DNA of 54,298 bases, from positions 34,266-88,563 of the forward strand of contig CAYZYU010000001.1 of the NCBI GenBank assembly GCA_964482915.1, in the 5' to 3' direction. The DNA is from Candidatus Woesearchaeota archaeon (GTDB taxonomy: Archaea > Nanobdellota > Nanobdellia > Pacearchaeales > GW2011-AR1). The translations under genes and the position numbers were made by a program. The notes under the pieces were generated by a model. That model saw nothing but the letters and a program-made list of their open reading frames with translations, did not search any database and was not told the origin of the DNA. Below are positions 2,336-54,298 of this stretch, piece by piece (position 1 is the first letter of the stretch; each line of letters opens with the position of its first letter).

Positions 2336-2346
2336 AATGAGGCTGC
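2336..2346 (-). repeat. 11-nt copy of the tRNA-Ile 3' end plus trailer (GCAGCCUCAUU)
   Basis: aatgaggctgc at 2336-2346 is identical to 2417-2427. It lies about 70 nt downstream (minus sense) of the tRNA. Confidence 0.6.
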
Positions 2347-2418
2347 TGGGTTTTTCTTTTAAAAAAAGAAAAGCTACAATGTAAAAGAAAACTACAATTA
2401 TTTTCTTTAGAAAATAAA

Positions 2419-2493
2419 TGAGGCTGCACAGATTTGAACTGTGGACCCCTGCCTTATCAGAGCAGTGCTCTAGCCAGACTGAGCTACAGCCTC
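2419..2493 (-). tRNA. tRNA-Ile (anticodon GAU)
   Basis: 75 nt, hand-folded. Acceptor GAGGCUG/CAGCCUC, D stem GCUC/GAGC, anticodon stem CUGCU/GGCAG, loop CU-GAU-AA, T arm CACAG-UUCAAAU-CUGUG, discriminator A. No encoded CCA, no intron. Confidence 0.9.
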
Positions 2494-2517
2494 GTGTTGT
2501 TTCTTTTGAAGCTACTC

Positions 2518-2567
2518 TCAGGATGGCTTGTTCTTCAAGAACTTTAGCCAGACTGAGCTACAGCCTC
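2518..2567 (-). repeat. exact 23-nt copy of the tRNA-Ile 5' end fused to a conserved 27-nt hairpin element
   Basis: 2545-2567 is identical to 2471-2493 (GAGGCUGUAGCUCAGUCUGGCUA). 2518-2544 reads AAGUUCUUGAAGAACAAGCCAUCCUGA on the minus strand. It matches the element at 23579-23604 in 22 positions, differing only in the hairpin loop. Confidence 0.85.
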
Positions 2568-2591
2568 ATGTTAAATTCAAAAAAAGAGACT

Positions 2592-2599
2592 ATTTATAA
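2592..2599 (-). promoter_or_regulatory. TATA-like box (TTATAAAT) placed for a start at the outer tRNA-Ile 5' fragment
   Basis: Spans about -32 to -25 relative to the first G of the outer 23-nt fragment. No comparable box at -26 of the complete inner tRNA. Confidence 0.45.
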
Positions 2600-2614
2600 G
2601 TTTTGTGAGAATCC

Positions 2615-22555: not shown

Positions 22556-23026
22556 ATGAGGAAATATGTTTATGAGGTTCCTGTTATCTCTCCTAGAGAA
22601 AGTTCGTTTTCTGGGAGTGATTATAATTTTCATGCTATTCTTGATGGAAAATTAGGAATAATTGCTAGAAATAAAGAGATTAATGATAATTCTTATAACA
22701 GATTAAAAAAAGAAGGAATTGAGATAGTAAAATCTTATTTATCTTATATGGATAAAAAATATAATCAGATGCCTTATCAGTTTGTAGAAGGCAGTTGGTT
22801 AGTTCATGCAATATGCGTTCCAGGAGATGCATGCGATTTAGCGTTAAGTGAAATGAGTATGAGAGATTTTTTGAACGAAGGGCTGAAGAAATTTGATCAC
22901 CAACGTACTCCAATTTGGGTGGATTATACTGGACATAATGTAGATAATATTAATCAAGCTAGATGTTTAAGAGAATTATTCATAAATTGGGCAAATCTTG
23001 TTAATATTTGTTTTAATAATGATTAA
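22556..23026 (+). CDS. hypothetical protein
   Basis: 156-aa ORF with no motif. Confidence 0.6.
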   Translation: MRKYVYEVPVISPRESSFSGSDYNFHAILDGKLGIIARNKEINDNSYNRLKKEGIEIVKSYLSYMDKKYNQMPYQFVEGSWLVHAICVPGDACDLALSEMSMRDFLNEGLKKFDHQRTPIWVDYTGHNVDNINQARCLRELFINWANLVNICFNND

Positions 23027-23373
23027 CTGGTTTTTCTTCCAATTCGTTCCGAGAAACCACACTTCCCACATTTTAACAAAATAAGATTATCTTCATCAGA
23101 ATAAAAAACTCCTAAATCAAGTATCTGTGCTTTATCATACCCGCATTTTTTGCATAAATTGGAGTAGTTTGCAAATTCATTTATACTATCTTTAATTCCT
23201 TCTCCTTTTTCTTTTTGTTTTTCTATTATCTCACTAAAAGAAAGAGTTGTTGTTTCTCCTGTTTTTGTTAGTTTGAACTCTTGACAATTATCACAAAAGG
23301 AATAAGATTTATCTTTGTCTATCTTTCCGCTTCTTACAATTCCTCCGCATTTATTACAAAAATTTAATGGCAT
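23023..23373 (-). CDS. dual zinc-ribbon protein, TFS/RpoM-like paralog
   Basis: Trimmed to ATG 23373 (MPLNFCNKCGG). N-terminal CxxC..CxxC. C-terminal ribbon CKKCGYDKAQILDLGVFYSDEDNLILLKCGKCG parallels the TFIIS-type ribbon of tfs at 24843-25148. Confidence 0.5.
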   Translation of the reverse strand: MPLNFCNKCGGIVRSGKIDKDKSYSFCDNCQEFKLTKTGETTTLSFSEIIEKQKEKGEGIKDSINEFANYSNLCKKCGYDKAQILDLGVFYSDEDNLILLKCGKCGFSERIGRKTS

Positions 23374-23378
23374 TTTAA

Positions 23379-23471
23379 AAATAAAGTGACCCCGATTATT
23401 CGAGCCCACACTGGATTATGGATTCTCTCGTGTAAACTCTCAGGATTTGAAGTTCAAATCCTTTTTTATTT
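23379..23471 (-). pseudogene. decayed tRNA-Lys-like remnant ending in an exact 18-nt copy of the tRNA-Lys 3' end plus trailer
   Basis: 23379-23396 is identical to 23472-23489 (AUCGGGGUCACUUUAUUU). Upstream, GUGGGCUCGAAU versus T arm GUGGGUUCAAAU matches 10 of 12. CAUAAUCCAG versus the anticodon-arm CUUAAUCUAG matches 8 of 10. No foldable cloverleaf. Confidence 0.5.
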
Positions 23472-23479
23472 AAATAAAG

Positions 23480-23554
23480 TGACCCCGATGGGATTTGAAC
23501 CCACGACACCTAGATTAAGAGTCTAGTGCTCTAGCCAGGCTGAGCTACGGAGTC
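23480..23554 (-). tRNA. tRNA-Lys (anticodon CUU)
   Basis: 75 nt, hand-folded. Acceptor GACUCCG/CGGGGUC (one G-U), D stem GCUC/GAGC, anticodon stem CUAGA/UCUAG, loop CU-CUU-AA, T arm GUGGG-UUCAAAU-CCCAU, discriminator A. No CCA. Confidence 0.9.
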
Positions 23555-23578
23555 ATCTTGTTTAATTATACTCTATAT

Positions 23579-23629
23579 TCAGGATGGCTTGTTCGTAAGA
23601 ACTTTAGCCAGGCTGAGCTACGGAGTCAT
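23579..23629 (-). repeat. exact 25-nt copy of the tRNA-Lys 5' end fused to the conserved 26-nt hairpin element
   Basis: 23605-23629 is identical to 23532-23556. 23579-23604 reads AAGUUCUUACGAACAAGCCAUCCUGA on the minus strand, the same element as 2518-2544. Confidence 0.85.
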
Positions 23630-23648
23630 TTTTACCTAAAAAAGATAG

Positions 23649-23657
23649 AATAAATTT
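23649..23657 (-). promoter_or_regulatory. TATA-like box (AAATTTATT) placed for a start at the outer tRNA-Lys 5' fragment
   Basis: Spans about -30 to -22 relative to the first G of the outer fragment. Confidence 0.4.
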
Positions 23658-23673
23658 GTTTAAAAATATGTTG

Positions 23674-24102
23674 TTAAACCCAGGCTTGCAGATTTTTCCA
23701 GTTCATATCCCCTTCTACCATTTCATCTGCTTTTTCTTTATCTATTGTACTTATGAAGATTGTTCTTTTGTTTTCAATGACTTTCAAATCCCCTTCATTA
23801 TTTATAATTGCCTTAAATATGGGTTCTTTGGAATCTTTTCCTATTGTTACTGAAGTTAGTGTATCTTCAAGAGAGGCTCCTGGAGATCCTGCTACAATAT
23901 CTTTGGGTATTTGATAAGATTGTTTAAAGAATAAGTAATAAGGATTTTCCCCGCTAATGTATTTTATTTTATAGGCACCTATCAAATCTTTTATTTGTTT
24001 ATTTGGGTTTAGAGAGGTATCAACTAACAAAGGGACTCCATTTACTTTAAGGGATTCTTCCTGTATTTTAAAATATTTTTTAGAAACTTCTTTTTCTCCC
24101 AT
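23674..24102 (-). CDS. hypothetical protein
   Basis: 142-aa ORF with no motif. Confidence 0.6.
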   Translation of the reverse strand: MGEKEVSKKYFKIQEESLKVNGVPLLVDTSLNPNKQIKDLIGAYKIKYISGENPYYLFFKQSYQIPKDIVAGSPGASLEDTLTSVTIGKDSKEPIFKAIINNEGDLKVIENKRTIFISTIDKEKADEMVEGDMNWKNLQAWV

Positions 24103-24174
24103 TTAGTTTTGATAATAATCTTCTTTAAAAGAATTATGAATATCTGTTATATATAGAAATATTATCTATATTCT

Positions 24175-24798
24175 TTATTGTTCTAATTTCTCTTTAATAT
24201 AATTAATTATTTGGGAGTGCTCTTTATTTAGAATTAAACCATACTTAACATCTTCTTTATTAAGATTATCTCTAATCATAAAATTTTCATTATTATATCC
24301 ATAGAATATCTCTGCAGATTTAACTGTTTTTTTATCTCTCTCAAATGACCTATTCATTATTAGATTTCTTATTATACCTCTTTTTACCATACAATAAGTA
24401 ATACCTTCTTTTTGACTGATTCTGCTTTCTTTTTCCCATATTTTTTTTATTAAATCACTTGATATAAAGTAAGTGTTCAAAACCTTTAGATTTTTATCAA
24501 GGAATCTTTGTCTTCCCCATTCTGTCTCTTGAATCAATCTTTTATTTGCATCGTGAAAATTATGAAATCCTAATGCATATATAATTGGTTCTTTAAAATC
24601 ATCTAATTTGTGAACTTGTTCTTCTTTTATTCTTTGACCCCATAGTATATTTCCCACTTTAGCTTCAACCCAGAAGTTTAATGTGGGATGATAAAAATCA
24701 GGCCCATCTTTATTGCCGCATGTTGAGATTAATTCAGGAAATCTTTCTTCTATAAATCTCTCAAATTTTAATCCTATGCTGTCTGTTACTTTAGACAT
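24175..24798 (-). CDS. hypothetical protein with a PD-(D/E)xK nuclease-like motif
   Basis: GPDFYHPTLNFWVEAKVG fits the D-x13-E-x-K spacing of the restriction-endonuclease fold. No methyltransferase nearby. Confidence 0.4.
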   Translation of the reverse strand: MSKVTDSIGLKFERFIEERFPELISTCGNKDGPDFYHPTLNFWVEAKVGNILWGQRIKEEQVHKLDDFKEPIIYALGFHNFHDANKRLIQETEWGRQRFLDKNLKVLNTYFISSDLIKKIWEKESRISQKEGITYCMVKRGIIRNLIMNRSFERDKKTVKSAEIFYGYNNENFMIRDNLNKEDVKYGLILNKEHSQIINYIKEKLEQ

Positions 24799-24842
24799 AC
24801 AAATTGTCCTTATCTTTAACTTAAAAGAATTAGTGTTTAAAG

Positions 24843-25148
24843 TTATCTATATTGTCTCCAAGTGTGATCGCACTTGGTGCATTTGAAGAACTTAGTTTCT
24901 GCTTCATCACCTGCACGGGTTTGTATTGTCCAAAAATAAGCCTTATCATTATCACACTTTTTACATTTTTCAACAACTATTGGGAAAGTATTCATCTCTT
25001 TCTTAACAACAGCCACTTTATTTTTCTCTTCAATTTTTTCAGAGGTTTTTATCTTTAATTTTTCTTTTGTAGAATAATCGCATCTAGCACATCCATAGTT
25101 CTTCCTCTTTTGAATTAAAACTGCTCCGCACTTTGGACAAAATTCCAT
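24843..25148 (-). CDS. tfs: transcription factor S (RNAP subunit M-like cleavage factor)
   Basis: N-terminal ribbon FCPKCG..CARC. C-terminal TFIIS ribbon CKKCDNDKAYFWTIQTRAGDEAETKFFKCTKCDHTW with the acidic DE hairpin. Confidence 0.88.
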   Translation of the reverse strand: MEFCPKCGAVLIQKRKNYGCARCDYSTKEKLKIKTSEKIEEKNKVAVVKKEMNTFPIVVEKCKKCDNDKAYFWTIQTRAGDEAETKFFKCTKCDHTWRQYR

Positions 25149-25216
25149 TGTTTTTTATTATTCTCCTTTGGCTTATTTTTGTTTAAATTTAATTAATTTA
25201 TAAAGGTTCTTATTTT

Positions 25217-45083: not shown

Positions 45084-45860
45084 ATGGTGTCTGAGACTTT
45101 AATTTTTATTTTAGCAGGTTTTGCTACAGGTATAATAACAGGATTAGTTGGAGCTTCTGCGATAGTTGCATTTGCACCTCTTATATTAATCTTTTTTGAT
45201 TATAATGCATTTACACTTATAGGAATAAGTTTGGCTCTTGATGTTTTTGTCTCTCTTGGAGCATTATTTACTTATAAAAGATATAAACATATTGAGTTTA
45301 AAACAGGAATTTATCTTTCAATATTAGCAATATTGGGAGCAATCATAGGAAGTTATGTTTCTAGATCGATTTCTAATACTAATCTTGTTGGAGTTACTTC
45401 ATTAATAACCGCCTTTACAGGTATATTACTTTTCAGAAGAAAATCTAATCCTAAAGAAGTTAAGAAGCGAAATAATTATTCTAAAACAAGATTTTGGATT
45501 GCAATATTTGCCTCTTTTATTGTAGGTCTTGTTGGGGGGAGTCTTGGAGCTGCTGGGGGAGTTACTGTCTTGCTTTTGCTTATATTTATTCTTAATTTTG
45601 AGACTCATTCTGCAATTGGAACTTCTATTTTTGTTATGTTTTTTATTGCATTATTTGGAGCTTTAGCTCATATTTATTATATAAATTCAATGAATTTCCA
45701 GTGGGGACTCTTATTTTTTGCAATAATTGGTGGAGTTTTAGGATCTATTTTCTCAGCAAAATCTGCTAATCTTATAAAGGAAAAATATCTCAATAAAGTG
45801 GTGGGAATACTTTTATTTGTATTAGGTGTAGCTACATTTTTACATAGAATTGTCTTTTAA
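45084..45860 (+). CDS. TauE/SafE-family anion exporter membrane protein
   Basis: About 8 TM helices with internal duplication; GLVGASAIV and GGSLGAAGGV motifs. Confidence 0.8.
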   Translation: MVSETLIFILAGFATGIITGLVGASAIVAFAPLILIFFDYNAFTLIGISLALDVFVSLGALFTYKRYKHIEFKTGIYLSILAILGAIIGSYVSRSISNTNLVGVTSLITAFTGILLFRRKSNPKEVKKRNNYSKTRFWIAIFASFIVGLVGGSLGAAGGVTVLLLLIFILNFETHSAIGTSIFVMFFIALFGALAHIYYINSMNFQWGLLFFAIIGGVLGSIFSAKSANLIKEKYLNKVVGILLFVLGVATFLHRIVF

Positions 45861-45937
45861 ATATTTTTAATCAGATTTTTATTATACATTAAGTTTAATA
45901 ATCTATATTTTTTATTTATTCTTATCTATTGTTAAAG

Positions 45938-46714
45938 ATGGTGATCCAAGAACTAGTATTTCTTATAGCAGGTTTTGCTACAGGCATAATAACAGGTTTA
46001 GTTGGAGCTTCTGCGATAGTTATATTTATCCCAATCATATTGCTTTTTATTAATTACAGCGCTTTTGCATTAATAGGGGTTAGTTTATCTGTAGATGTGT
46101 TTGTTTCTCTATTGGCTATCTTTATCTATAGAAAATTTCATCATATTGATTTTAAAACAGGATTTTATTTAGCAATTCCTGCTGTATTTGGAGCTGTTCT
46201 TGGAAGTTATCTTTCAAAATTTGTTGCTGGTACTAATTTGATTTGGTTAACTTCATTATTTACTGCTCTGACAGGAATAATGCTTTTTTACAGAAAAGTA
46301 AAAGTGAAAGAAGTCCATACCTTAAAGGATTATTCAAAATCTAAACTTTGGATTGCTGTTGTACTTGCTTTTATTGTAGGCATTATTGGTGGGGGTCTTG
46401 GAGCTGCTGGAGGAATTGCTGTCTTTTTGCTTCTTGTTTTTTTCCTTAATTTTGAGACTCATTTAGCAATTGGTACTTCTATTTTTGTGATGTTTTTTGT
46501 GGCACTTTCCGGGGCATTATCTCATATTACCCGTATAAGTGAGATGGGCTTCCACTGGATATTACTTTTATATGCTGTTATAGGAGGAATTATTGGGGCT
46601 CTTTTTTCTTCTCGTTTAGCTAATAAAATAAGTGAGAAAAATCTTAATAGAATGGTTGGAATAATTTTGTTTGTATTAGGTACTTTAACTTTTATAAATA
46701 GTATATTAAGATAG
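45938..46714 (+). CDS. TauE/SafE-family membrane protein, tandem paralog
   Basis: Collinear with 45084-45860 (LIAGFATGIITGLVGASAIV identical stretch). ATG 45938 chosen by analogy (the track used TTG 45929). Confidence 0.8.
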   Translation: MVIQELVFLIAGFATGIITGLVGASAIVIFIPIILLFINYSAFALIGVSLSVDVFVSLLAIFIYRKFHHIDFKTGFYLAIPAVFGAVLGSYLSKFVAGTNLIWLTSLFTALTGIMLFYRKVKVKEVHTLKDYSKSKLWIAVVLAFIVGIIGGGLGAAGGIAVFLLLVFFLNFETHLAIGTSIFVMFFVALSGALSHITRISEMGFHWILLLYAVIGGIIGALFSSRLANKISEKNLNRMVGIILFVLGTLTFINSILR

Positions 46715-49970: not shown

Positions 49971-52900
49971 AAAGTATTTTTTTGCTTTAATCAGCATAAT
50001 TTTGATAACACTCTTATCCTATGAGGTTTTAGCAGGGACTAATGTTCCAGATTGTGGAATAACAATCAATATCTCAGGACAATATGAATTAAACGCGGGA
50101 ATTTCTGGGACAGCAACTTGTCTAACAATTAATACAAGTAATATAGAACTAGATTGCAAAGGAAATACTATTTCTTATGGTTCAGATGGAGTTAATGGAA
50201 GAATTGGAATATCTGTTGCCCTTGGAACAGTTTATCTTGAAAATATCACAATAAAAAATTGCATAATTCAAGACACAAATCCTGCTGGAACCACGGGGTA
50301 TGGAATATATGCATTAAGAACATCTAATTCATATATAATTAACAATACAATTAATACAAGCGGAACTGCTACAAATCACGGGATTTATTTATCTACTGCA
50401 AGTCAAAATAATCTTCTTGAAAATAATACCATAAATGCTTATGGAAGCACTACAGGAAACTATGGGATTTATTTAATTTATCAATCAAATAATAACACAA
50501 TTAGAAACAATGAAGTAAAGGCAACAGGAACAACAACAAGCTATGCACTCATGCTTTATAGCTCAGAATATAATTTAATAGAAAACAACAATTTTTCAAG
50601 TTACACTCTTTTAACAACAGGAAATTCAGATATGAATGTAGTTTATTTATACTATGGTTCAAGATATAATATTTTAAGAAATAATTACATTTATTCAGAT
50701 GCTGAAGCAAGAAATTACCATATTTATCTAAATTTAAATAATAATTATAATATCATTGCAAATAATACTATAATTCCAAATGATGATGAAGGAACAAACC
50801 CTGGAATTTATATTCTTGGTTCTGATTACAATCTTGTAGAGAATAATACCATTAGAACAAATGGAACAACAGCCAATTATGGGGTTTGGTTAGGAGCATC
50901 TTCAACAGGAAATATGATTAATAAAAATAATATTATCACAAATGGAACTACAACCAACAATTACGGAATTTATTTGGTAAGTGCACTTTACAATAATATA
51001 ACAGAAAATCAGATCTCCTCAAATGGATTAACAACAGGTAATGCAGGAATAACTTTATCAAGTGCCCAAAGAAATTACCTTGCAAGAAATAATATTTCTA
51101 CAAGTGGGACAACAACAGGATATGGAATTTATTTGACTGGTTCTGATTATGACACAGTAGAAGATAATGATATTTCTACATTTGGAACAAGCACTGCAAA
51201 TGATGGAATCTATTTAATCTCTTCTACAAACAATAACATAATAAACAACAGAATAACTGCAAATAGCACCTCTTCTGGAAATATTGGTATTGCTTTATAT
51301 ACCTCAACAGGAAATTCTTATGTTTATAATAATACTATAAAAACTGATGGAACAACTACAAATTATGGTATTTTATTACAGACTGCAAATAATAATTCGA
51401 TAGTAAATAATCAAATATCAACCAGTGGAACAACTACAACAAATCATGGAATTTATCTTTATATAAGTGCAAATGCAAACAAAATCTACTATAATAATAT
51501 CTCTACATATGGCACAACAACAAATCATGGGATTTCACTTAGCACAACTTCAGATGGAAATGAAATTGTTGGAAATTATATAATAGCTAATGGCTCAACA
51601 ACAGCCTCCGCAACAACAACAAATAATTTTGGAATTGCTGCTGCTACAAGTTGTTATAATAATCTTATGGAAAATAATACAATACTAAATTCCGGAGGAA
51701 GGTATAACTATGGTATATATATTTCAGTAGAATCTGGATATTCTACAATTAGAGGAAATAATATTACTACTGGAGGAAGTGGGGCCACAAATGCAGGAAT
51801 TTATCTTTCAGAAAGCAGAAACAACCTTCTAGAAGAAAATATAATCTCTACTTCAGGTTCTGCTACAGATTACGGTATTTATCTGTATTCTAATGCAAAA
51901 TATAATTTTGTTAAGAAAAATAATATTACAACCTCAGGAAGTACTAATTCTTATGGAATTCTTCTTGATGCAGTAATTCCAAACTTCCCCCACAATAATT
52001 CTTTTCAAGAAAATAATTTTATTAGTATTGCTGGAACAGAATTTAGATTTGCTGATGCAGAAATAGATGAAAATTATTTAATTAGCCAGATTATTGACAG
52101 TTACTTATTTACTGGAATTGGAAGCAAAATGATTGTTAGAAATGACTCTGCAGGAGAAATAAAATTCTTAGATAGATTAACTGGTTCTGGAACAGGATTT
52201 AGTGATGATGTATACATTTTAGAGAATTATGCTTTTATTGATTCGAGTATCCCAGGATTAAACAAGTCAGCAGAGATAACCATTTATAATTTACCAACAA
52301 CTTCAAATGAATTACAAATTTACAGGAATGGTATAATCTGCAGTGATTGTTTTAATTTAACTTCAATGCAAGCAGGAAATGTAACATTTAATGTAACACA
52401 AGGAGGAGGATACTCAATTAATTCCTCAAGTTCATCTCCTTTAATAGAATTAGATTTCCCTGAAAATGATTATTTAACAAATCAGCAAAATATTAATTTT
52501 AATTTTACAGCTAGAGATGATTCTGTAGGAGATTTAAATTGTAGCATTTATATTGATTCTATTTTAAATCAAACCAATTCAACAACTCAAAATAATACTC
52601 TAACTAATTTTGCTGCTAGTGGATTAACTGAAGGAAATCATAACTGGAATATTGAATGTTTTGATTCAGCAGGAAATAGAAATATTTCTGAAACAATAAA
52701 TTTTACAATAACAATTTCACAATCATCCTCATTATTTAATTATCCAGAGAATAAATCTTATTTTAATAATTTAGACTTTATATTGTTAAATTATACTGTT
52801 TTAGATTTAGATTTAAAGATAATGACTGCTTGGATTTATGGGGATGAAATTCTTCTAAATACAACTTCAGGATTAACTAATGGTTCATCTTTAGTTTACA

Positions 52901-54298
52901 ATTGGACAAGTTTAGATTTAGGACAATATAACTGGTCTATAATAATCTGGAATGGAATAAAGAACTCTTCTATTGAATATTCTTACTTTAATAATATTAA
53001 TTTAACAATAAATTGTGAAGCAGGAGGAGATTATCTTGAAGATCCAACTGTTTTAATTCAAGGAAGAATAAATGACAGTAGCGGGATAGTTTCATTAAGT
53101 TCACAAATAATTAATATTTCTATTTACAATGATTCCACAGAGGAAATAATCACTTCTTCAAATATAACCACAGAATCAAATGGTGTATTTAATAGTATAT
53201 TTCCTGGATTGGAAATAGGAAATTACACTGTTTATACAAAAGTTAATTATCAAGGAATTGAAATAAATAGTTCAGACTCATTTAAAATTTCTCTTGGATA
53301 TGAAGCAGGTTACAATGCAGGATTTATTGCTGGAAATGAATCAGGATATATTTCTGGATTTGATTATGGTAATATCACAGGATTTAATTTAGGAAATATC
53401 ACAGGATTTATACTTGGAAACAATACTGGTTTCACATTAGGAAATACAACTGGATTTGTATACGGTAACCTCACAGGATTTGTTTTAGGAAATTCAACTG
53501 GTTACATTTTAGGTAATGCAACTGGATTTACATTAGGAAATTATACTGGGTTTATATTAGGAAATCAAACAGGATTTATAATAGGAAATATTTCAGGTTT
53601 CAATCTTGGTAATTCAACCGGTTTTACACTTGGAAATTATACTGGATTCATATTAGGAAACATTTCAGGATTCTACTTTGGAAACCAGACAGGTTATACT
53701 ACAGGTTACAATGCAGGATTTATTGCTGGAAATGAATCAGGATATATTTCTGGATTTGATTATGGTAATATCACAGGATTTAATTTAGGAAATATCACAG
53801 GATTTATACTTGGAAACAATACTGGTTTCACATTGGGCAACTCAACTGGTTATACCTTGGGATTTAACACAGGTAATATAACCGGATTTACTCTAGGTAA
53901 TACTACCGGCTTTGTATACGGAAATAATACTGGTTATATTTTAGGATTTAATACAGGCAACTTAACAGGCTTCACATTAGGAAACACAACTGGCTTCGTT
54001 CTTGGCAACTCTACAGGTTATATTTTAGGTAATGCAACTGGCTTTGTATATGGTAACACAACAGGATTCATATTAGGAAACACAACAGGATTTGTATATG
54101 GAAATATCACTGGATTTGCTTTGGGTAATTCCACCGGATTTACACTTGGAAATTTAACAGGTTATATTCTTGGAAATCAAACAGGTTATAACGCAGGATT
54201 CAGCACAGGAAACACAACTGGATTTAATCTAGGAAATACTACAGGTTTCACATTGGGCAACTCAACTGGTTATACCTTGGGATTTAACACAGGTAATA
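49954..54298 (+). CDS. giant secreted/surface protein, 3'-truncated by the window (signal peptide, parallel beta-helix, beta-sandwich modules, octapeptide array)
   Basis: Hand translation from ATG 49954 (or 49960) to 54298 has no stop codon (1,448 codons). Not on the supplied track. N-terminus MKMTSKKYFFALISIILITLLSYEVLAG. Confidence 0.85.
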   Translation, partial: MKMTSKKYFFALISIILITLLSYEVLAGTNVPDCGITINISGQYELNAGISGTATCLTINTSNIELDCKGNTISYGSDGVNGRIGISVALGTVYLENITIKNCIIQDTNPAGTTGYGIYALRTSNSYIINNTINTSGTATNHGIYLSTASQNNLLENNTINAYGSTTGNYGIYLIYQSNNNTIRNNEVKATGTTTSYALMLYSSEYNLIENNNFSSYTLLTTGNSDMNVVYLYYGSRYNILRNNYIYSDAEARNYHIYLNLNNNYNIIANNTIIPNDDEGTNPGIYILGSDYNLVENNTIRTNGTTANYGVWLGASSTGNMINKNNIITNGTTTNNYGIYLVSALYNNITENQISSNGLTTGNAGITLSSAQRNYLARNNISTSGTTTGYGIYLTGSDYDTVEDNDISTFGTSTANDGIYLISSTNNNIINNRITANSTSSGNIGIALYTSTGNSYVYNNTIKTDGTTTNYGILLQTANNNSIVNNQISTSGTTTTNHGIYLYISANANKIYYNNISTYGTTTNHGISLSTTSDGNEIVGNYIIANGSTTASATTTNNFGIAAATSCYNNLMENNTILNSGGRYNYGIYISVESGYSTIRGNNITTGGSGATNAGIYLSESRNNLLEENIISTSGSATDYGIYLYSNAKYNFVKKNNITTSGSTNSYGILLDAVIPNFPHNNSFQENNFISIAGTEFRFADAEIDENYLISQIIDSYLFTGIGSKMIVRNDSAGEIKFLDRLTGSGTGFSDDVYILENYAFIDSSIPGLNKSAEITIYNLPTTSNELQIYRNGIICSDCFNLTSMQAGNVTFNVTQGGGYSINSSSSSPLIELDFPENDYLTNQQNINFNFTARDDSVGDLNCSIYIDSILNQTNSTTQNNTLTNFAASGLTEGNHNWNIECFDSAGNRNISETINFTITISQSSSLFNYPENKSYFNNLDFILLNYTVLDLDLKIMTAWIYGDEILLNTTSGLTNGSSLVYNWTSLDLGQYNWSIIIWNGIKNSSIEYSYFNNINLTINCEAGGDYLEDPTVLIQGRINDSSGIVSLSSQIINISIYNDSTEEIITSSNITTESNGVFNSIFPGLEIGNYTVYTKVNYQGIEINSSDSFKISLGYEAGYNAGFIAGNESGYISGFDYGNITGFNLGNITGFILGNNTGFTLGNTTGFVYGNLTGFVLGNSTGYILGNATGFTLGNYTGFILGNQTGFIIGNISGFNLGNSTGFTLGNYTGFILGNISGFYFGNQTGYTTGYNAGFIAGNESGYISGFDYGNITGFNLGNITGFILGNNTGFTLGNSTGYTLGFNTGNITGFTLGNTTGFVYGNNTGYILGFNTGNLTGFTLGNTTGFVLGNSTGYILGNATGFVYGNTTGFILGNTTGFVYGNITGFALGNSTGFTLGNLTGYILGNQTGYNAGFSTGNTTGFNLGNTTGFTLGNSTGYTLGFNTGN
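50245..51975 (+). repeat. about 20 imperfect 22-27-aa parallel beta-helix (PbH1/NosD-like) coils, in frame
   Basis: Recurring N-N-x-I-x-x-x-G-(T/S)-T-T-x-N-Y-G-I-Y-L, for example NNTINTSGTATNHGIYLS, NNTINAYGSTTGNYGIYLI, NNIITNGTTTNNYGIYLV, NNQISTSGTTTTNHGIYLY. Confidence 0.75.
53296..54298 (+). repeat. 24-nt-periodic in-frame tandem array encoding the octapeptide G-N-x-(T/S)-G-(F/Y)-x-(L/I/V/Y)
   Basis: About 41 units to the window edge, for example GNITGFNL GNITGFIL GNNTGFTL GNTTGFVY GNLTGFVL GNSTGYIL. Punctuated by GYNAGFIAGNESGYISGFDY and GFNT half-units. Exact DNA repeats: 53306-53438 = 53702-53834 and 53824-53878 = 54244-54298. Confidence 0.9.

Follow-up and report, generated by a model that had tools for sequence, protein, structure and literature searches.

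Within the 54-kb stretch of archaeal DNA analysed here, the whole of which is called the window, the genes for tRNA-Ile(GAU) and tRNA-Lys(CUU) are each preceded by a short insert that starts with an exact second copy of the 5' end of the tRNA and is predicted to fold back onto this copy as a hairpin; both loci, and all features given for them below, are read on the minus strand. At the tRNA-Ile locus, the TATA-like promoter box TTATAAAT (2592-2599) lies 24 nucleotides (nt) 5' of the outer copy of tRNA positions 1-23 (2545-2567, 23/23 identical to 2471-2493), which makes up the 5' side of the hairpin in the leader. This copy is followed by a core of 27 nt (2518-2544), composed of AA, a GUUCU-UGA-AGAAC hairpin, an A and the anti-D segment AGCCAUCCUGA, and by a tail of 24 nt (2494-2517) with an acceptor-pairing part, a discriminator-like A and an A-rich linker ending in AAACAACAC. 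The intact tRNA-Ile(GAU), recognized by ARAGORN and with 67 bits by Rfam, occupies 2419-2493.

In an earlier note on this DNA, positions had been given for the box, the 23-nt copy, the element, the tRNA and the 3'-end copy of 11 nt, and each of them was confirmed on the minus strand. The same is true of its statement that a TATA-like box is missing at -26 of the inner tRNA; no A/T-rich box was found at about this position, the stretch being the element itself. The length of the 24-nt spacer was likewise correct, but it had been overlooked that this spacer pairs with acceptor positions 1-5/7 and so closes the whole unit: UAGCUUC (2508-2514) of the tail is complementary to acceptor positions 1-7 (GAGGCUG) of the outer tRNA-Ile copy.

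At the tRNA-Lys locus, an A/T-rich promoter region (TTTTTAAACAAATTTATT, 23649-23666), which is kept in insert-free relatives, is followed by an outer copy of tRNA-Lys positions -2 to +23 (25 nt, 23605-23629, an exact match to 23532-23556), a conserved core of 26 nt (AAGUUCUUACGAACAAGCCAUCCUGA, 23579-23604) and a unit tail of 24 nt (23555-23578), consisting of an acceptor-pairing part and an A/U-rich linker ending in AAACAAGAU. Acceptor positions 2-5 (ACUC) have their pairing partner in GAGU of this tail, and positions 7-9 (GUA) in UAU. The intact tRNA-Lys(CUU) lies at 23479-23554 (ARAGORN; Rfam, 67 bits).

Fold and conservation of the upstream unit

Together with the syntenic loci of relatives, which were retrieved via neighbouring proteins and are labelled by L-numbers, five variants of the unit are available from four genome lineages, namely window tRNA-Ile, window tRNA-Lys, L034 tRNA-Ile, L053 tRNA-Lys and L079-82 tRNA-Lys. 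Across these five, the insert between promoter and intact tRNA measures 67-74 nt, with direct repeats of 23-33 nt enclosing 44-51 nt, and is made up of a tRNA repeat of ≈23 nt, a hairpin of 4-5 bp, an antisense 3' arm, a discriminator-like A and a short A-rich linker, the 3' arm being antisense to two parts of the repeat, first its D-arm and then its acceptor 5' strand. Folded alone, the upstream unit of either window locus gives a single closed hairpin, a rod of ≈60 nt, and then an A-rich linker of 13-14 nt. The GUUC/GAAC hairpin is found at the tip of the rod, AGCCA-UC-CUGAG on the D-arm of the outer copy, and the start of the spacer on acceptor positions 1-5/7. Both the tip hairpin and the anti-D complementarity had been put forward in the earlier note, and both were present in every predicted fold. 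Fold z-scores amount to -3.7 and -4.2 for the two window units, and to -2.6 to -4.2 across single-sequence folds, with predicted rod stabilities of -16 to -27 kcal/mol.

Recurrence of layout and element at tRNA-Lys had been taken to make a random scar unlikely, and the counts bear this out: the window holds four occurrences of the D-arm 17-mer, all at these copies, where 0.15 would be expected, and the 27-mer element, confined in the window to the two tRNA loci, had no match in 100 shuffles. The outer copy is identical to the inner one in 5/5 units, and the copied sequence itself exists in four versions (Ile; Lys with GGCUA; Lys with GGUUA; Lys with G at position 2). The direct repeat may extend into the upstream flank, to -2 in tRNA-Lys and over positions -7 to +26 in L034. 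Core identity is 25/27 between tRNA-Ile and tRNA-Lys of the window, 23/27 between window tRNA-Ile and L034, and 20-25/27 over all five units; the tails of the window tRNA-Ile, window tRNA-Lys and L034 units can hardly be aligned. Tail orthology within the tRNA-Lys units was considered and gave no signal, the likeness between Ile and Lys tails being about equal to that among the Lys tails.

An analysis of covariation had been recommended in the earlier note. With a covariance model of four units, the fifth one was detected in L079-82 (52 bits, E about 1e-9), 5' of a tRNA-Lys and with a period of 67 nt; the tRNA-Lys of L078/L079 had been missed by ARAGORN because of its canonical intron of 41 nt. 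In the model-guided alignment of the five units, 94.7% of the cells hold standard pairs and 4/19 pairs change on both sides, three of them in the acceptor-like closing stem (acceptors GAGGC, GACUC, GGCUC) and one between D-loop and anti-D segment, from C-G to U-A; these values come from a small sample of five sequences, with an alignment fitted to the model and a 5' arm tied to the tRNA by copy identity. The observed values for pairing and covariation were reached by 1 of 500 shuffles, slid registers pair at 26-48%, and a MAFFT alignment of four sequences gave the same picture. The base 3' of the closing stem is an A in 5/5 units. Over the five sequences, pairs are kept via compensatory substitutions, as is typical of a structured RNA; the upstream unit is real, limited to few lineages, and conserved with a co-varying structure.

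Occurrence among relatives and position of the promoter

The L034 tRNA-Ile unit shows the layout of the window with a period of 73 nt, at ≈77% nucleotide identity to the window, and in L053 tRNA-Lys the layout is present with a diverged core. The insert is absent at tRNA-Ile from L042, L038-40, L070 and L074-77, and at tRNA-Lys from L052, L054-L060 and L071-72. Carriers do not make up a single clade, in that L070 is without the unit yet 86.5% identical to the carrier L034, and L052, L054 and L060 are without it though 86-89% identical to the carrier L053. From this mix of carriers and non-carriers among close relatives it follows that the layout is an insertion/deletion difference of 67-74 nt. 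Two features seen here, empty alongside occupied sites in related genomes and exact tRNA-derived direct repeats on either side of the insert, are expected of integrated mobile elements of the SSV or pNOB8 type with duplicated attachment sites. Recombination between the direct repeats of 23-33 nt would excise the unit precisely, so that repeated loss is easy, and the unit may also have been gained repeatedly and site-specifically. Decay is seen as well: L078 has the TFS protein, tRNA and intron of L079 but a different leader of 110 nt, in which the outer copy is decayed and a long hairpin is still predicted, so the unit can decay and be replaced.

A search for the core in other genomes by exact patterns, as suggested earlier, led in the metagenome collection to the L034 lineage only; the genome collection returned 32 matches, all bacterial and at chance level, and the viral collection only chance matches or an ordinary phage tRNA. 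Exact core patterns are too strict for the L053 and L079 variants, so that these negatives understate the distribution. Several of the related contigs were assembled from anaerobic-digester communities. In L042, the anticodon loop of tRNA-Ile (L042:6863-6940) carries an extra T (read 'gtat') and several neighbouring genes are fragmented, which is probably a matter of error-prone long-read assembly, not of biology.

The tRNA-Ile promoter CACAAAACTTATAAATAG (window 2568-2599) keeps 24-25 nt to +1 in five lineages with varying spacer sequence, and the TTATAAAT box with this spacing is also present in the insert-free L042, L038, L070 and L074. Relative to the promoter, the +1 position of tRNA-Ile in the insert-free relatives coincides with the start of the outer copy in the window. 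The leaderless-looking start remarked on in the earlier note was seen again, and it is explained by an outer copy that occupies the ancestral start of the tRNA. The fixed spacing suggests near-leaderless transcription, as in Nanoarchaeum. The only promoter is situated 5' of the outer copy. The tRNA-Lys promoters are without such fixed spacing, and in L034 the sole TATA box is located 48 nt 5' of the outer copy, so that removal of a 5' leader is unavoidable in this relative. The L034 arrangement thus upholds the earlier proposal that the inner tRNA must be released from a longer precursor, and would imply an RNase P-type activity in the group. RNase P RNA (Rfam, 54-kb window) and the protein domains of the enzyme (ORFs, i.e. 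open reading frames, of the window tested with Pfam) were not found, which has no bearing on the rest of the genome.

Two further kinds of variation were encountered near these promoters and tRNAs. A gene for a LAGLIDADG-type homing endonuclease (221 amino acids (aa), weak Pfam match) lies at L070:798-1463 and L074:1113-1778, and also in L075 and L077, free-standing between a Zn-ribbon gene and the tRNA-Ile promoter, with a promoter box on both sides in L070; it looks as if L034 has lost this gene, which would explain its distance of 48 nt between TATA box and outer copy. Canonical (37/38) introns have been gained or lost among the relatives (L038:3681-3774, L070:1490-1581, L079:5264-5377, L078:3925-4038), with 14-18 nt for tRNA-Ile in L038-40 and L070, none in the window, and 41 nt for tRNA-Lys in L078 and L079.

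Origin and possible role of the insert

The interpretation favoured here, which comes close to an even chance without reaching it, regards the insert as a DNA insertion at the D-loop whose transcript would be a 5' leader that folds on itself and is taken off by ordinary end processing. Insertion or recombination at the D-loop position fits best with the presence and absence of the unit in close relatives and with the common core at two tRNA genes. The origin by integration that the earlier note had listed is retained to this extent, but neither an integrase nor a full-length element was found. At the DNA level, insertion or recombination would have occurred in the D-loop-coding part of tRNA genes sharing GTAGCTCAGYCTGGYTA, and clean loss could take place by recombination between the direct repeats of the unit. 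The ancestral promoter of the tRNA itself would transcribe the unit as the first part of the precursor, and the unit would fold co-transcriptionally into a closed, inert rod with an acceptor-like end. An RNase P-type cut at the inner +1, possibly after a tRNase Z-type cut behind the rod, would then release the tRNA; rod, single-stranded A-rich linker and tRNA can be likened to the arrangement of a dicistronic tRNA transcript.

The antisense arm would, on this interpretation, lock the redundant 5' copy and keep it from rivalling the genuine 5' strand as partner in the acceptor and D stems. Sequestering of the D-arm had been proposed in the earlier note, and the anti-D pairing as such is predicted; its target, however, is more plausibly the outer copy than the D-arm of the functional tRNA, because the antisense arm is transcribed right after the outer copy and closes the full hairpin. 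In equilibrium folds of the window loci, the predicted probability of the inner copy forming the acceptor stem is 0.5-0.6 with the native spacer and 0.00 with the spacer shuffled.

Several points weigh against this interpretation. With the native spacer, the probability of the inner copy forming the acceptor stem is just 0.17 in L034 and 0.02 in L053; the insulating role would rest on the order of folding during transcription, because equilibrium folds favour the inner copy unclearly in these two, and taken as proof of that role equilibrium folding is partly supportive at most. To our knowledge, ≈50 nt is far below the size of any known integrative element, and we know of no transposon class with a target duplication of 23-25 bp. 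The insert holds no ORF, and no domain of a recombinase, transposase or integrase was detected among the window ORFs tested with Pfam. A generic mobile core cannot have carried the tRNA-specific anti-acceptor segment, which needs either selection after insertion or an unknown copying mechanism. Finally, the outer copy is identical to the inner one in five lineages, though mutation would be an easy fix if it were a nuisance, the decayed copy of L078 being the exception.

As a rival explanation, improbable but deserving to be taken seriously, the unit may be a functional RNA module and not a tolerated insert: the leader rod or a released hairpin of ≈60 nt would be selected for its own activity and would have been installed on several tRNA genes of a genome. 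Such a module could control or check the maturation of the tRNA 5' end behind near-leaderless promoters, or could act as a stable mimic of the tRNA end that binds a D-arm or acceptor factor. Along these lines, core identity amounts to 85-92% between genomes with an overall identity of ≈77%, the rod is kept closed by compensatory changes with an invariant discriminator-like A, the outer copy is held identical in five lineages, and the TATA-to-+1 spacing is fixed for tRNA-Ile. Furthermore, presence tracks the genome, with both window tRNAs carrying the unit and neither of those in GCA_027318675.1 (L039, L057). On the other hand, close relatives do without the unit at the same genes, L078 has a decayed outer copy and a different leader, and just five variants are known, each at one of two tRNA species, Ile or Lys. 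The analysis identified no partner protein, and Rfam 15 gave no match for the upstream unit even at E <= 10, only the tRNAs themselves being matched. Overall, the chance that the unit is a new type of RNA module with a function of its own is put as substantial, though well below even. A broader form of this idea, an undescribed tRNA-derived leader module of DPANN archaea that resides on many tRNA genes through its own spread or through host recombination, appears unlikely; such a module would be a rod-shaped RNA with a tRNA acceptor end, in which the antisense arm locks an exact copy of the first third of the tRNA. It would serve in the control of tRNA maturation or, as a stable decoy, would capture D-arm or acceptor factors, and the antisense arm would co-evolve with the host tRNA because selection acts on the RNA structure.

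It is quite unlikely that the unit is a neutral integration scar, left by a virus or plasmid that had entered at an attachment (att) site of about -2 to +23/26, duplicated this site and was later deleted almost entirely, with the palindrome representing recombinase half-sites. The repeat does run slightly into the 5' flank, pointing to a boundary at the DNA level, the tRNA-Lys locus is a hotspot of rearrangement among relatives with 96%-identical TFS proteins, and the 3' partial copies of the window are typical of 3'-end integration. However, the gap of 17 bp between the inverted half-sites is unlike the core sites of tyrosine recombinases, and independent deletions would not each leave 44-51 nt. 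G-U pairs and compensatory changes in the tRNA-specific closing stem fit pairing at the RNA level, and no recombinase gene or remnant of an element was found among the ORFs tested. Phage and plasmid sequences yielded no BLAST match to the unit, in line with the lack of a viral match, and a comparison of the neighbouring ORFs with PHROGs yielded nothing useful. A duplicated 5' fragment of positions 1-27 has been published (PMC3293823) and lends the scar some precedent.

Decay of tandem tRNA-gene duplicates with a degenerated middle part, another origin that the earlier note had listed, is very unlikely. Periods of 73-74 nt are close to the 75-76 nt of the tRNAs, the tail read directly resembles the 3' acceptor strand and discriminator with C-to-T and G-to-A changes, and the window does hold a decayed downstream copy of the 3' part of tRNA-Lys. 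Separate decay of an Ile and a Lys gene, however, cannot yield a core that is 25/27 identical; in addition, the L079 period is 67 nt versus a gene of 114 nt, the spacer shows no residual similarity to anticodon or T arms, the 5' copy is undecayed, and the core is in part already seen ahead of tRNAs with unrelated bodies. Least credible of all is a D-loop intron, with the outer copy providing the mature 5' end and the archaeal endonuclease and ligase removing spacer and inner copy: the outer copy does lie at a leaderless distance from the TATA box in the window and L079, equilibrium folds of L034 and L053 do favour it in the acceptor stem, and the lineage does splice tRNAs (canonical introns in L038, L070 and L079), but no bulge-helix-bulge exists at any register joining equivalent copy positions, the L034 outer copy has its own leader of at least 20 nt, beyond the reach of splicing, and there is no reason for an intron to keep a perfect copy of an exon.

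Related systems, 3' copies and surroundings

How archaeal tRNA genes become interrupted, split and rearranged is a long-standing question, for which integrating elements and introns are the usual answers. We rate the insert as a case of tRNA-gene disruption or partial duplication through insertion, a kind of event already known. What sets it apart is a small, recurrent, structured insert in the D-loop that duplicates the 5' third of the tRNA, with the copy kept identical and paired across genomes that are ≈77-80% identical, a combination that has no counterpart among described integration scars, introns or split genes; in the literature no description of this tRNA-leader layout was found. Should the hairpin be produced and stable, these organisms with their minimal genomes would possess a novel sort of tRNA-derived RNA; should it be tolerated and no more, the case would show how an antisense arm can co-evolve with a disruptive partial duplication and neutralise it.

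Transcription of tRNAs without leaders in Nanoarchaeum equitans, an organism free of RNase P, was reportedly described by Randau and co-workers in 2008. The tRNA-Ile box is similarly placed, 24-25 nt from +1, with the outer copy at +1 in the window; unlike in N. equitans, the tRNA-Lys promoters and L034 are without this spacing, so that some 5' processing must exist. Split tRNA genes (N. equitans, Caldivirga) share with the present loci a 5' piece directly behind the promoter, followed by a segment complementary to the precursor, but here the pairing is with the 5' piece itself or its identical copy and not with a separate 3'-half leader, and no trans-splicing is needed. A split or permuted gene was ruled out in any case, both tRNA-Ile and tRNA-Lys being complete at 67 bits. 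Archaeal D-loop introns of the bulge-helix-bulge type, for which intron transposition has been proposed in Thermoproteales, are likewise short D-loop inserts complementary to the adjacent exon, with related inserts at different tRNA genes. The present insert differs from them in having no bulge-helix-bulge and a full copy of the 5' exon, and in leaving the downstream tRNA uninterrupted in every case, canonical introns apart, whereas an intron would interrupt the mature tRNA. For this motif, two 3-nt bulges around a 4-bp helix at the exon-intron boundaries were demanded, with excision yielding the mature tRNA; over registers 0-27 in four variants the best candidate reached 8/10 pairs, was not conserved, and had a self-pairing 4-base sequence as its central helix. 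Polycistronic tRNA precursors and tRNA-like minihelices, which are substrates of RNase P and tRNase Z, resemble the unit in their acceptor-like stem, discriminator-like A and short linker before the tRNA; the upstream unit, by contrast, is a rod and not a cloverleaf, scores as no tRNA or Rfam family, and its processing is putative. Context for the comparison with RNase P-free and leaderless systems is provided by PMC3491384 and PMC10100707.

As regards origin, the closest published analogue is the tRNA-Thr locus of Caldiarchaeum subterraneum, where a 5' fragment (positions 1-27) and the full tRNA flank an insert of 1.87 kb with a putative recombinase, explained by a pNOB8-type model (Sugahara et al. 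2012, PMC3293823). Both systems have the 5' fragment (1-27 there, 1-23/26 here) as a direct repeat upstream of a complete tRNA, both have a boundary at the end of the D-arm, and in both the presence varies in the population or among close relatives. In contrast to the Caldiarchaeum locus, the insert here has 44-51 nt, is free of genes and antisense to the repeat, forms a co-varying hairpin, and has its core at two tRNA species. Three other identities were tried and rejected: a miniature inverted-repeat transposable element or an insertion-sequence-type element, since the spacer ends (AAGTTC..., ...AAACAAnAY) are not inverted repeats and the duplication is 23-33 bp versus the 2-15 bp required; a C/D-box guide RNA, for which the core has a CUGA, not conserved in L053, but no C box, and offers guide pairing of just 5 nt; and a G3:U70 minihelix of the alanyl-tRNA synthetase type, confined to the tRNA-Ile unit of the window and absent from L034.

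Partial copies of the 3' ends are found 70-90 nt downstream of both tRNAs. At tRNA-Ile this is an 11-nt copy of 3' end and trailer (2336-2346, equal to 2417-2427), and at tRNA-Lys a decayed copy of T-arm, acceptor 3' strand and trailer (23379-23409, 18 nt exact), a match as good as which occurred in 0 of 2000 shuffles. The nesting of tRNA-Ile between its own ends, described in the earlier note, is correct in that the 3' copies are real, but these are no part of the conserved 5' unit. They have no counterpart in the unit carriers L034 and L053 and were seen in the window genome only, so that they constitute a separate feature, and a single cassette for 5' and 3' copies was ruled out on the same grounds. 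The 3' copies look like remnants of 3'-end attachment sites. Two degenerate ATTGTAG(C)TTTTCTTTT repeats lie nearby, within window 2361-2399.

The region around tRNA-Lys is a hotspot of rearrangement (window 23000-25200 versus L052-L060 and L071). Genomes whose TFS protein matches that of the window at 93-100% identity differ in the orientation and neighbours of tRNA-Lys: the window, L054 and L060 have the gene on the TFS strand, while L052, L053 and L071 have it on the other one. The variable stretch between TFS and tRNA-Lys holds an ORF of 207 aa (window 24175-24798, minus strand) without Pfam or PHROG match, which belongs to a rare family of 18 proteins among 5.8 billion. Its predicted structure (pLDDT, the predicted local distance difference test, of 90) shows a PD-(D/E)XK fold like that of restriction endonucleases and Hjc, with invariant D34, E45 and K47; the ORF had been considered as a gene of a mobile element, but its fold is that of a nuclease and not of a recombinase.

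The window as a whole is ordinary archaeal chromosome with 30% G+C, encoding L15e, MetRS, ValRS, topoisomerase, CDC48, PolB, RFC, TFS and other housekeeping functions. Among matches with a named source, the best for L15e and TFS carry the labels Pacearchaeota, Nanoarchaeota or Diapherotrites, all of them DPANN. A long run of 24-nt periodic repeats covers window 53282-54293, and periods of 81 nt or similar occur at 50400-51700; both stretches probably belong to a single, very large ORF for a repetitive surface protein that runs off the window. Two genes for transporters of the TauE/SafE family are arranged in tandem at 45084-45860 and 45929-46714, with ≈73% DNA identity to each other.

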